The position numbers and the translations under genes were made by a program. Positions 30,566 to 34,232 of a DNA stretch of 34,232 bases are shown one piece after another (the first letter of the stretch is position 1; each line of letters opens with the position of its first letter). Source of the stretch: an uncultured Acidimicrobiaceae bacterium (GTDB taxonomy: Bacteria > Actinomycetota > Acidimicrobiia > Acidimicrobiales > MedAcidi-G1); contig CAJXIS010000001.1 in assembly GCA_913054115.1 (NCBI GenBank), positions 1 to 34,232 of the forward strand, in the 5' to 3' direction. The notes under the pieces were generated by a model. That model did not search any database. It had not been told where the DNA came from and saw only the letters and a program-made list of their open reading frames with translations.

Positions 30566-30597
30566 GGGCACCAAGAGTATCCCGCCCCCGACAACGC

Positions 30598-30632
30598 AGA
30601 AGGCCCGGAACCGTTGCGATCCCGGGCCTTCT
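30598..30632 (-). terminator. Hairpin downstream of the tRNA fragment (11-bp stem AGAAGGCCCGG / CCGGGCCTTCT, 13-nt loop)
   Basis: Perfect 11-bp inverted repeat at 30598-30608 / 30622-30632. No strong U-tract, so a terminator role is inferred from its position 3' of the tRNA sequence. Confidence 0.5.
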
Positions 30633-30636
30633 CGTT

Positions 30637-30685
30637 TGGTGGCGGGGGCAGGATTTGAACTTGCGACCTTCGGGTTATGAGCCCG
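30637..30685 (-). pseudogene. tRNA-Met(CAT) 3' fragment (anticodon arm to CCA), non-functional copy
   Basis: The reverse complement reads GCGGG-CTCATAA-CCCGA-AGGTC-GCAAG-TTCAAAT-CCTGC-CCCCGCC-A-CCA. There is a T-stem A:C mismatch (GCAAG vs CCTGC) that R2 lacks. Upstream sequence (GGTGACCGAAGCCTAC) has no D-arm or 5' acceptor strand. Confidence 0.75.
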
Positions 30686-30797
30686 CGTAGGCTTCGGTCA
30701 CCAATGGCCAACATGGTCAGGACGGCCAGTATCCAAGCGGATCGGCATGCCGATCTGGTTACCGCTCACCTGCGAAGGCTCATCAAGCAGCCATTTC

Positions 30798-30817
30798 TGT
30801 GACAAATTTTGTGACAA
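30798..30817 (+). repeat. Double octamer TGTGACAA-ATTT-TGTGACAA (left copy)
   Basis: 19/20 identical to 34098-34117 in the same orientation. Lies 112 bp inside R1. Confidence 0.8.
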
Positions 30818-31007
30818 CAGAGCGTCCGACCCCACCCCCATCGACGGCCGCTATACACGGATACCACCGTCGGATTCAGACTCCGGGGCCTCTTCGCCGC
30901 CGGCACTATCGGGGCGGAGGGAGCGGGAGTCTTCGTTCCGTCGTACTGCTCGGAAATCGGCGTCGCAGGCCGGGCGTCGCCGTCCGGTAACTGGCAGGCT
31001 GTGTCCC

Positions 31008-31181
31008 GTGCACAACGAAGGCGAAGCCCTGGCCAAGTGGCTGTTCCTGGCCGGTGCCGTGGTGTTCGTGGTGGCGTCGATCCGAGCCGGCGACTTGCTG
31101 TTTACCGTCGGCTCGGTTCTCGTCCTCGCCGCCTGCGTGGTGTTCCTTGCCGGGCGTGGGCGCCCGACTCGCGACCGGTGA
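31008..31181 (+). CDS. Hypothetical small two-TM membrane protein (57 aa; weak call)
   Basis: In-frame GTG inside ORF 30747..31181. Only the tail KWLFLAGAVVFVVASIRAGDLLFTVGSVLVLAACVVFLAG looks protein-like (two hydrophobic helices). The upstream part of the ORF is low-complexity. Confidence 0.3.
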   Translation: MHNEGEALAKWLFLAGAVVFVVASIRAGDLLFTVGSVLVLAACVVFLAGRGRPTRDR

Positions 31182-31230
31182 CCGGTACCAGCCCGTCGGT
31201 CGGCGACTCACCTCCCGCTTGGAGGGAGAA

Positions 31231-32193: not shown

Positions 32194-32208
32194 GAGTCCT
32201 GAACCAGC

Positions 32209-33054
32209 ATGGTTTCCCCAGATTTCGTCTACAGCCGCAGTTATCGCGGGAGCGTGAAGGCAGTCATCCTCGACTGGAGCGGGACCACCGCTGACGCCTA
32301 TGTCATAGCTCCCGCGGTCGTATTCGTAGAGGTGTTTTCCAAGCACGGCGTCGAGATCTCAATGGAGGAGGTCCGGGGACCGATGGGCTTGCGTAAGGAC
32401 CTCCACATCAAGGCTCTCACCGAAGATCCCACGATACGGGAGCGGTGGAAGGGCGTTCACGGCAGATATCCGGACCAGTCCGACGTCGACACGATGTTCG
32501 AGCGTTTTGTACCGCTGCAACTGGAATGCCTGCCCAAATACACCACGTTGTTGCCGGACGTAGCCGAGGTAACGACCAAACTGCAGGCCGACGGTATCAA
32601 GATCGGGTCAACCACCGGTTTTACACGGCCAATGGTCGATATCTTGGAATCGGCGGCCAAGAAGCAGGGCTACGAGCCGGATGCTTCCGTCGCAGGGGAT
32701 GAGGTGATCCACGGAGCGCGGCCAAAGCCGTTCATGGTGTATCGCAACCTCGACCTTTTGGATGTTCATCCCATTCAGTCGGTGGTGAAGGTCGATGACA
32801 CGGTGAGCGGAGTCGGGGAAGCGCTCGAAGCTGGATGTTGGGGTGTCGGCATCGCTCGCTATTCGAACTACATGAACGTCAACTCGCTCGAAGAGATCGA
32901 TCAGCTCACTGACGATGACATTGCACGGCGCCTTGCCCATACTCGAGACCTGCTTGGCAAAGCAGGGGCTCACTATGTCATCGATGGCTTCGGCGAACTC
33001 CTCGATGTCATCGACGACATCAACTTCCGCCTCAAGAGAGGCGAGCGCCCCTGA
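32209..33054 (+). CDS. phnX: Phosphonoacetaldehyde hydrolase (phosphonatase), HAD superfamily
   Basis: AVILDWSGTTADAYVIAPAVVFVEVFSKHGVEISMEEVRGPMGLRKDLHIKALTE closely parallels the PhnX N-terminus as I recall it (DWAGTTVD ... PMGL.K..H). It includes the HAD DxxGT nucleophile motif and the Schiff-base Lys region. Confidence 0.85.
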   Translation: MVSPDFVYSRSYRGSVKAVILDWSGTTADAYVIAPAVVFVEVFSKHGVEISMEEVRGPMGLRKDLHIKALTEDPTIRERWKGVHGRYPDQSDVDTMFERFVPLQLECLPKYTTLLPDVAEVTTKLQADGIKIGSTTGFTRPMVDILESAAKKQGYEPDASVAGDEVIHGARPKPFMVYRNLDLLDVHPIQSVVKVDDTVSGVGEALEAGCWGVGIARYSNYMNVNSLEEIDQLTDDDIARRLAHTRDLLGKAGAHYVIDGFGELLDVIDDINFRLKRGERP

Positions 33055-33060
33055 GAACTC

Positions 33061-33237
33061 TGCCACACCCACCTCGTCAGTCAGGTCGACACTGACCAGG
33101 TCGACACTGACGTTGAAATCACCGTCACCATCCGGGCCAAGAATACCGGCGGCTTCGACGACAAGACGATCCGAGACGTGACCGAAAACGCCCGAACACT
33201 CAAGTTCGACGACGGCTCAGGATTCAGCGACAGTTAA
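33061..33237 (+). pseudogene. Orphan 3' gene fragment with no start codon; tail resembles C-termini of DUF499-type P-loop NTPases (tentative)
   Basis: Same frame as phnX, directly after its stop: ...VDTDQVDTDVEITVTIRAKNTGGFDDKTIRDVTENARTLKFDDGSGFSDS*. There is no Met/Val start with an SD. The family assignment is from memory of the ...ENARTLKF..GFxx tail only. Confidence 0.4.
33082..33111 (+). repeat. Perfect 15-bp tandem duplication (CAGGTCGACACTGAC x2)
   Basis: Read directly: 33082-33096 is identical to 33097-33111. It encodes QVDTD-QVDTD in the frame of the fragment below. Confidence 0.9.
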
Positions 33238-33239
33238 CT

Positions 33240-34097
33240 TGAACCGCCCCGGATTTTACGCAGGCTGGGTTGTTTGAGTCCTGGCCGGTTCGGTCGGGAC
33301 GTGTTGACGGTAGTGGAGGTGTTCGTACTCTGCTGGCGGGATGTGGCCGAGTTGGCCGAACAGGCGGCGGTGGTTGAACCAGTCGACCCATTCGAGGGTG
33401 GCGAGTTCGAGGTCGTCGAGGCCCCGCCAGGGGCCTTTGTTGCGGACCAGCTCGGTCTTGTAGAGCCCGTTCATCGTTTCGGCCAGGGCGTTGTCGTAGG
33501 AATCACCGCGTGACCCGACCGAGTTCACGACACCGCACTCGGCGAGGCGTTCCGTGTAACGGATCGACAGGTATTGCACGCCCCTGTCGCTGTGATGGAC
33601 CAGACCGTCGAGGGCGCGTCCCTGCCGGCTGCGTTCCCACACGGCCTGTTCGGTGGCGTGGAGCGCCAGGTCGGTGTTGAGTGAACGGCTGGCCTGCCAG
33701 CCCACGATGCGCCTCGAGTAGGCGTCGGTGACCAACGCTACGTACACGAACCCCGACCAGGTCCTGACATAGGTCAGGTCCGCGACCCACAACCGGTTCG
33801 GGGCCACAGCGGTGAAGTCCCTGTCGACCAGGTCACGGGGCCGGACAGCAGTGTCGTCGCTGATCGTGGTGCGCCGTGGCTTGCCACGAACAGCACCGAC
33901 AAGGCCCAGGTCACGCATAAGGCGCTCCACGGTGCAACGAGCCACGCTGATGCCCTCACGGTTGAGCTGCGCCCAAACCTTGTTCGCGCCGTAGACGCCG
34001 AAGTTGTCCGCATGCACCCGGGCGATATCGACCCTGAGCGCTGCGTCGCGCACAGAACGCTTCGACGGCGGTTCGAAAGGCCCCCAATGATGGTCGT
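33240..34097 (-). mobile_element. 5'-truncated IS3-family (IS6110-like) insertion sequence: right IR plus most of orfB; orfA and left IR missing
   Basis: The terminal sequence TGAACCGCCCCGGATTTTACGCA at 33240-33262 matches the first 13 nt of the IS6110 inverted repeat (TGAACCGCCCCGG) as I recall it. The element should be ~1.3-1.4 kb but only ~0.85 kb is present. The inner boundary is approximate. Confidence 0.8.
33256..34053 (-). CDS. IS3-family transposase OrfB (DDE/rve integrase core), N-terminally truncated
   Basis: [34 protein letters not shown] (first D), [11 protein letters not shown] (second D), and [17 protein letters not shown] (E). It is near-colinear with IS6110 OrfB. No OrfA or frameshift window lies upstream. 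Confidence 0.85.
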
Positions 34098-34117
34098 TGT
34101 GACAAATCTTGTGACAA
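34098..34117 (+). repeat. Double octamer TGTGACAA-ATCT-TGTGACAA (right copy)
   Basis: 19/20 identical to 30798-30817 in the same orientation. Lies 26 bp inside R2 and abuts the truncation point of the IS. Confidence 0.8.
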
Positions 34118-34142
34118 GGGCCTTGGCCATCAACCGACCCGG

Positions 34143-34232
34143 GACAACAGAAAGGCCCGGAACCGTTGAGATTCCGGGCCTTCTACTTGGTGGCGGGGGC
34201 AGGATTTGAACCTGCGACCTTCGGGTTATGAG
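34143..34232. repeat. Direct repeat R2 (hairpin plus tRNA 3' part), runs off the window
   Basis: See R1. The hairpin is GGCCCGG(34154-34160)/CCGGGCC(34174-34180) with flanking A/T pairs. Confidence 0.85.
34188..34232 (-). tRNA. tRNA-Met (anticodon CAT), initiator-type, 3' 45 nt only (5' part lies beyond the window end)
   Basis: The reverse complement reads CTCATAA-CCCGA-AGGTC-GCAGG-TTCAAAT-CCTGC-CCCCGCC-A-CCA. The T-arm pairs perfectly, CCA is encoded, and the CCC on the 3' side of the anticodon stem is an initiator hallmark (the GGG partner lies beyond the window end; the R1 copy shows it). It strongly resembles E. coli/mycobacterial tRNA-fMet as I recall them. Ile2(CAT) cannot be excluded without the 5' half. 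Confidence 0.78.

Follow-up and report, generated by a model that had tools for sequence, protein, structure and literature searches.

Islet A, a probable decayed remnant of an integrative element in a tandem tRNA-fMet island array of an uncultured actinobacterium

How does a block of low-GC DNA come to lie between two partial copies of the same tRNA gene when it encodes no site-specific recombinase of its own? The question is posed by the right-hand end of contig CAJXIS010000001.1, from an uncultured and probably marine actinobacterium, which we analyzed over its entire 34,232 bp (hereafter the window), the last base of which is the final base of the repeat core described below. There, a segment at positions 30686-34142, termed islet A, is bracketed by two imperfect direct repeats, R1 (30590-30685) and R2 (34143-34232). 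A preliminary description, made from the sequence of the window, had considered the segment to be a decayed genomic island or an element resembling a cis-mobilizable element (CIME). We find that islet A is the first unit of a tandem tRNA island array, and we assign a probability of roughly 0.8 to the reading that it is what remains, after decay, of a small integrative element inserted by a tyrosine integrase into the 3' half of tRNA-fMet.

R1 and R2 each comprise the 3' half of a minus-strand tRNA-fMet and a stable hairpin lying directly after the CCA end. The terminal ACCA ends at position 30637 in R1 and 34188 in R2, and the anticodon CAT is located at the right-hand end of each repeat. In R1 the hairpin occupies 30590-30636 and the tRNA half, from the CCA end to the anticodon stem, 30637-30685; in R2 the hairpin lies at 34143-34187 and the tRNA half, cut by the contig end, at 34188-34232 (all on the minus strand). 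Global alignment of 30590-30681 with 34142-34232 yielded 83 identical columns out of 93 (89%), and a repeat search delivered a 46-nt tRNA block (30636-30681 and 34187-34232, 98% identity) along with a 48-nt block downstream of the CCA end (30600-30647 and 34152-34199, 81% identity) that is offset by a 1-nt indel. The tRNA cores agree at 45 of 46 positions, and the window contains a 31-nt core exactly two times, where shuffles predict none. At position 30661 R1 has a T, which breaks one pair of its T stem, whereas R2 has a C and a fully paired T stem (GCAGG/CCTGC). The resemblance of R1 to a tRNA ends at gagcccg (30685), and the repeat continues for 47 nt past the CCA end, spanning the hairpin, which folds with -35.2 kcal/mol in R1 (z -5.15) and -27.2 kcal/mol in R2 (z -4.3), the two hairpins being 81% identical. 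These results uphold the preliminary description with respect to the length (~90 bp), position and ~90% identity of the repeats, the pairing of the two T arms, the limit of R1 near the anticodon stem and the extension of ~47 bp beyond the CCA end. Rfam matched R2 as a tRNA (30.5 bits, the 5' side being cut at the window end), ARAGORN called no tRNA in the window and R1 was called as a tRNA by neither program. Placing the crossover from the T/C difference in the T stem was considered and rejected, since one single-nucleotide polymorphism (SNP) cannot separate a recombinant from a later mutation.

Exact-protein look-up with the phosphonatase (PhnX) encoded in islet A retrieved ten contigs, each at least 99.4% identical to the window, including a 42-kb contig (L001, 99.7% identical) that extends 6.9 kb past the window end. 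The expectation that R2 would continue into a full tRNA gene did not hold in these sequences: after ...ttatgag, L001 reads aacgatccggcc... (aacgatccgg...), which is not tRNA, and two further contigs (L002 and L005) agree, so that extension past position 34232 leads to no intact tRNA at R2. Instead, L001 enters a second integrase-less unit of ~5 kb, islet B, with genes for RpiB, a bifunctional aldolase, a pseudouridine kinase and PsuG (GC content at third codon positions, GC3, 0.71-0.77). Islet B is followed by a third tRNA-fMet 3' half, R3 (L001 17024-17068), which is identical to R2 over 45 nt and has a hairpin of -28.1 kcal/mol, and after R3 starts a further unit, element C. The order in L001 is therefore flank, R1, A, R2, B, R3, C, which makes the locus a tandem array in which at least three units follow one another at the tRNA. 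The junction of the flank with R1 and islet A is present in seven contigs, that of A with R2 in five and that of R2 with B in three; because the junctions recur at 99.4% identity or above in at least seven contigs of ENA, JGI and Logan origin, we do not regard them as assembly artefacts.

R1, R2, R3 and the copy at the tRNA-fMet locus of a related organism (L094) all lose their match to the core at ...TTATGAG, within the anticodon loop, and because all tRNA halves end at this one position, we interpret the boundaries as attachment (att) junctions. It is in the anticodon loop that the sequence shared by an element's attachment site and its tRNA target usually ends. R1 would thus be of the attR type, at the array junction furthest from the tRNA, and the earlier proposal that it is a displaced att-type remnant is borne out by the common boundary of the tRNA core and by the arm motifs described next.

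A 20-nt double motif, TGTGACAAAT(T/C)TTGTGACAA (TGTGACA-N4-TTGTGAC), has just two copies in the window, at 30798 and 34098, with 0.06 occurrences expected. Both copies are in direct orientation inside the islet, one in the putative element-borne arm X_A beside R1 (30686-30830, plus strand; TGTGACAAATTTTGTGACAA at 30798-30817) and the other in the corresponding arm Y_A beside R2 (34069-34142, plus strand; TGTGACAAATCTTGTGACAA at 34098-34117), and they are mirrored about the core boundary, at +117 to +136 and -134 to -115. In L001, element C has a third copy whose distance from R3, 117 nt, equals that of the X_A copy from R1, and a spacing of ~117 nt is also kept in L094 and in two loci with a tRNA-Pro core (L097 and L093). 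Position and conservation suggest that the double motifs serve as arm-type sites for an integrase or excision factor. Islet B contains a double repeat of its own, CCGTTAGAAGA twice (L001 16946-16969), at the position equivalent to the Y_A motif, which suggests a different integrase specificity within one array. An unrelated contig of 46% GC (L111 1651-1911) has three copies of TGTCACA, the reverse complement of the arm motif, spaced 11 bp apart and ~170 nt downstream of an intact tRNA-fMet; the resemblance may be fortuitous, or the contig may hold a distant element whose arm sites are alike.

The hairpin can be understood in the same framework. R3 and L094 also carry a hairpin at this position, and the hairpins of R1, R2 and L094 have a common stem. 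The R1 hairpin would be the native terminator of tRNA-fMet, stranded there when the first element integrated, and the R2 hairpin an element-borne replacement, with R2 as a whole representing element A's own copy of the tRNA half, later displaced by the integration of islet B. The repeat extends beyond the CCA end because the element, as we read it, carries a terminator in its attachment arm; the extension had been called unusual for a duplication, and we do not consider it to be a duplication made by insertion. A likely benefit of the carried hairpin is that the rebuilt tRNA gene retains a terminator.

The composition of islet A sets it apart from its surroundings. Its GC content of 61.5%, versus 66.2% in the rest of the window, is below that of all 3457-bp windows in the flank (range 63.6-69.9%) and falls to 50% in the stretch 31261-31320, in line with the lower GC first reported between the repeats; the GC3 of its two cargo genes is 0.70-0.71, versus 0.79-0.89 in flank genes. 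The absence of a recombinase was likewise confirmed as far as tyrosine and serine site-specific recombinases are concerned: no Phage_integrase or Resolvase domain is present among the 27 open reading frames (ORFs) of at least 50 aa in the window, and tblastn with the integrase, the excisionase (Xis)-like protein and two other genes of a related element (L096, see below) found no remnant. Within the islet, the source of the Pfam rve "integrase core" match is a truncated DDE transposase of an IS3-family insertion sequence (IS), not an island recombinase. Both this truncated transposase and the internal repetition of the double motif had been overlooked in the preliminary description. We conclude that islet A cannot move by itself, while CIME-type mobilization by a compatible integrase from a neighboring element is possible.

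Two scars record the decay of the islet. The first is the IS3 copy itself (33240-34068, minus strand), identified by NCBIfam transpos_IS3 and by alignment to an intact copy of 1307 bp (L227 1075-2381), to positions 479-1307 of which it is 88.8% identical over 829 bp. It retains the right inverted repeat, TGAACCGCCCCGG, at 33240 and most of orfB and lacks the first 478 bp, comprising the left repeat, orfA and ~40 codons of orfB; accordingly, transpos_IS3 matches at profile positions 124-369 only, and OrfB measures 265 aa here compared to 305 aa in full-length relatives. A complete IS3 element has OrfA and a DDE-type OrfB between two inverted repeats, and with one repeat and OrfB residues ~41-305 this copy is a dead member of the family. 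Its orfB is split further in L001 (11048-11845), into ORFs of 72 and 191 aa, and the fragment thus decays independently in different strains. The intact copy lies 45 nt downstream of an intact tRNA-Pro(GGG) (region L227 1075-2501), also beside a tRNA island hot spot. The second scar (33088-33237, plus strand) is a relic of an HmaC-like AAA+ defence ATPase gene, of which the last ~42 codons remain (PADLOC HmaC, E 4.4e-8, profile positions 895-936 of 941). All else of this gene has been deleted, only 2 nt separate the stop codon of the relic from the terminal repeat of IS3 and a perfect 15-nt tandem repeat, CAGGTCGACACTGAC twice (33082-33111), marks its 5' break; islet A probably once carried a defence system.

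Where the integrase would have been is indicated by L096, in which a 52%-identical homolog of the gene that comes first in element C is preceded by the same repeats. Its gene order is an intact tRNA-Lys, a Phage_integrase gene, a 241-aa gene, an HTH_17 (Xis-like) gene and the homolog, and its tyrosine integrase gene (Pfam Phage_integrase; PHROG 1 integrase, E 7e-43) directly adjoins the tRNA 3' end. Because of this arrangement, an integrase is expected beside Y_A in islet A, which is exactly where the IS3 copy is cut, 29 nt from the Y_A motif. Loss of the integration module through a deletion beside IS3 is therefore plausible. The signs of decay in islet A (an IS3 copy without 478 bp and a 42-codon HmaC relic) are accompanied by a known integrase in a related element.

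The product of the first gene of element C (L001 17419-18540), 373 aa long, combines winged-helix domains with an HNH motif; it has homologs (P0001-P0012) of 373-426 aa, but none of its relatives is annotated. Pfam and PHROGs returned only weak MarR-type and HNH matches for this protein, searches among plasmids gave no match and among phages a match to the HNH domain alone, a profile search against the PDB gave nothing significant and its AlphaFold model (pLDDT 76) matched winged-helix regulators only, all with E > 0.01. All 37 members of its cluster are on contigs of at most 3.7 kb. Comparison of the tRNA-fMet loci (L001 17024-17202 and L094 97-274) with the tRNA-Pro loci revealed that L097 (108-290) has a homologous arm and a first gene whose product is 95% identical, but a core consisting of the 3' half of tRNA-Pro(GGG); L093 likewise has a tRNA-Pro core. 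The family thus appears to switch between tRNA targets (fMet, Pro and Lys) while retaining its arms.

Together these observations can be arranged into a sequence of events. In standard tRNA integration, the copy of the tRNA 3' half supplied by the element completes the tRNA, and the chromosomal 3' half ends up at the far end of the element. The attachment site of element A would have held a tRNA 3' half, a replacement terminator hairpin and two arm double repeats (TGTGACA-N4-TTGTGACAA) situated ~125 bp to either side of a crossover near the anticodon loop. Its integration would have left the chromosomal tRNA 3' half with the native terminator as R1, while the element's copy, R2, then completed the tRNA. 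Elements B and then C would have integrated into the rebuilt tRNA and pushed the earlier units outward, the integration of B orphaning R2 and that of C orphaning R3. Deletions would finally have removed the integration module and most of the HmaC-like gene, sparing two metabolic cargo genes and both att arms. From the initial proposal, an integrase-less remnant with att-type repeats of tRNA halves is retained; what changes is the status of R2, which is also displaced, and of the islet, which is the first of at least three units.

Several points weigh against this scenario. No empty site was found by exact-protein look-ups with the flank gene and PhnX, as all contigs with the monooxygenase gene that borders the array also carry islet A, and homologs of this monooxygenase at 76-80% identity lie in unrelated gene contexts without a tRNA nearby. 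The T-stem mismatch of R1, a single SNP, is uninformative on the position of the crossover. We take the TGTGACA repeats to be bound by an integrase or Xis solely on account of their position. The kinship between islet A and element C consists of the arm motif, its spacing and patchy similarity of the arms, with no gene in common. The 6.9 kb available beyond the window in L001, where the preliminary description advised looking for an integrase, contain no cognate integrase, none specific for tRNA-fMet was seen and the intact tRNA end of the array is not reached in any trustworthy contig. An intact relative of islet A was also sought in viral and metagenome contig collections with a pattern of core, gap and motif: none was found, and the pattern does match the known JGI loci, whose samples those collections lack. 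An ungapped motif scan returned 120 metagenome and nine viral matches, none related to this locus.

The alternatives differ in how they accommodate the same evidence. One of them extends the decayed-remnant reading and does not replace it: islet A could still be a working cis-mobilizable element with competent att junctions, excised alone or together with B and C by an integrase and Xis from C or beyond. Both arms with their double motifs and both cores have been kept, and the X arm of element C has the same class of motif at the same spacing. In addition, one contig of 3.4 kb from an older JGI assembly (L006) is alone in continuing R2 into a tRNA 5' half, without B or C. The resulting tRNA-Met (3127-3203) has two unpaired positions in the anticodon stem (GGG to GTT), is followed by AT-rich DNA and scores 49.8 bits versus 62.5 bits for a normal tRNA-fMet; its altered bases are the "aa" found at the R2-B junction, which excision could have left behind. 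L006 may stem from a strain that lacks B and C, may preserve the scar of an excision or may be chimeric. External contigs thus provide at least two continuations of the window end (islet B and the tRNA 5' half), and the assembly probably broke where the population is polymorphic, the break exactly at the core suggesting such heterogeneity. On the other hand, no integrase was found in the available sequence of the array, the cargo is heavily decayed, islet A is present in every sampled contig and L006 is a single short contig with an AT-rich end that may be chimeric. We consider present-day mobility of islet A unlikely, if worth keeping in mind.

It is less likely still that the islet never had an integrase and was brought in as passenger DNA, be it donor flank or fused fragments, together with a mobile neighbor. 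The lack of any detectable integrase remnant and the close resemblance of the R2 hairpin to a host terminator would suit such an origin, and in the tycheposon model most island DNA is transferred material outside the elements (bioRxiv 10.1101/2020.12.28.424599). However, both arms are complete and each bears the family-specific motif, at distances that mirror each other, as would be seen once an element had integrated through an attachment site of its own and not in random passenger DNA, and the deletion scars lie exactly at the expected position of the integrase. An ancient tandem duplication of a chromosomal tRNA-fMet with its terminator, the 5' halves having decayed in the absence of any mobile element, is highly improbable, as three copies are cut at the same position in the anticodon loop, the intervening DNA differs from unit to unit, is of foreign composition and holds IS and defence-gene debris, and the arm motif is common to elements at other tRNAs, even though similarity that includes the terminator is what a segmental duplication would give. 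Equally far-fetched is a misjoining of metagenome contigs through the conserved tRNA sequence: the window contig does end exactly at the repeat and L006 does continue differently, but the junctions counted above recur across ENA, JGI and Logan assemblies, for which different assemblers were used.

Returning to the decayed element, its remaining content comprises three genes on the plus strand. A small membrane-like ORF of 57 aa (31008-31181) is called as a gene in all related contigs and has a weak YrhK-like Pfam match (E 0.0012). A homocysteine S-methyltransferase family gene (31306-32193; GC3 0.70) matches Pfam S-methyl_trans with E 1e-65, its NCBIfam matches lying under the equivalog cut-offs. 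The gene for the phosphonoacetaldehyde hydrolase PhnX, the phosphonatase (32209-33054; GC3 0.71), matches NCBIfam TIGR01422 with 295 bits against a cut-off of 220.

On the chromosomal side, the array is bounded by an FAD-dependent monooxygenase gene (29270-30565, minus strand; Pfam FAD_binding_3, E 8e-31), the last gene of the high-GC flank (GC 71%, GC3 0.875), which is linked to R1 and islet A in the seven ENA, JGI and Logan contigs mentioned above and marks the chromosomal boundary of the array. A contig scan with this gene returned relatives at 80% and 59% identity that are non-syntenic and have no tRNA close by. Next to it, the second PhyH-family dioxygenase gene of the flank (28432-29256; L001 6210-7048) is disrupted in two different ways, an in-frame TGA (28840-28842) replacing the expected Trp (ICSV*VAC) in the window, L091 and L092, and a frameshift in L001; these breaks look like independent inactivation among co-existing strains.

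How does islet A compare to known systems? In pSAM2-type elements of actinomycetes and L5-type phages, the identity block shared with the tRNA spans the sequence between its anticodon loop and its 3' end, and arm-type repeats flank the core. Islet A has the same identity block and core-flanking repeats, and in its relative L096 the integrase gene adjoins the tRNA. It differs in being without integrase, Xis, replication and transfer genes, and in that the arm of this family also brings a terminator hairpin. Its insertion conforms to integration into the 3' part of a tRNA with an element-supplied copy, R1, R2 and R3 lying in one orientation and each being followed by different DNA, while an autonomous tyrosine-integrase element would encode a tyrosine recombinase of its own, which islet A does not.

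CIMEs, first defined for the ICESt1/ICESt3-related islands of Streptococcus thermophilus, have kept their att sites and lost their integration and transfer genes (reviewed in PMC5704250). Similarly, islet A is bounded by att-type sites, with a common core boundary and arm motifs at +117 and -134, it lacks integrase, excisionase and transfer genes, the 27 ORFs carrying no Phage_integrase or Resolvase domain and tblastn finding no remnant of the L096 genes, and it stands in tandem with other elements at one target gene (accretion). In contrast to those islands, its host is an uncultured high-GC actinobacterium, its target is tRNA-fMet and not fda and no partner integrative and conjugative element (ICE) or integrative and mobilizable element (IME) with a matching integrase was identified for it.

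In the tycheposons of Prochlorococcus, incoming elements at a tRNA push older, degenerating ones outward and partial tRNAs separate the units (bioRxiv 10.1101/2020.12.28.424599). The array described here resembles them in its probably marine host, the successive integrations at one tRNA, the partial tRNA spacers and the degenerate units without integrases, and the phosphonate-catabolism cargo of islet A fits the theme of nutrient acquisition. The likeness is architectural only: no tycheposon-type recombinase or primase/helicase is encoded in islets A and B or in what is available of C, the gene conserved in this family codes for the winged-helix/HNH protein and the host belongs to another phylum. 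Tandem islands at ssrA in Dehalococcoides, 15 of which lack an integration module and were read by the authors as possible CIMEs (PMC3146451), are also arrays split by direct repeats of the 3' end of a small-RNA gene; a serine recombinase and a 20-bp ssrA repeat operate there, compared to a 45-nt tRNA half with hairpin and a tyrosine integrase known in the family here.

Measured against these systems, islet A is an ordinary decayed, CIME-like integrative element in a tandem tRNA array and introduces no new principle; its modest novelty is that of an uncharacterized element family, with its arm motif, HNH-motif protein and tRNA-target switching, in an uncultured actinobacterial lineage. A more far-reaching proposal, which we regard as speculative, is that the islet and its neighbors form an undescribed family of small tRNA-targeting integrative elements of uncultured, probably marine Actinomycetota, characterized by a tRNA 3' half with a replacement terminator, TGTGACA double repeats ~125 bp to each side, a winged-helix/HNH first gene and easy switching of tRNA targets, with islet A still being mobilized in trans and the L006 tRNA being an excision scar. 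For annotation, the tRNA halves are to be treated as att remnants and not as pseudo-tRNA genes, and the "integrase core" match is to be attributed to a dead IS3 transposase. What survives decay at this locus is useful cargo, the phosphonatase and the homocysteine methyltransferase-family gene, together with orphan att sites, and the locus as a whole exemplifies the growth of an island by serial integration at one tRNA followed by decay, as in Prochlorococcus, Streptococcus and Dehalococcoides.

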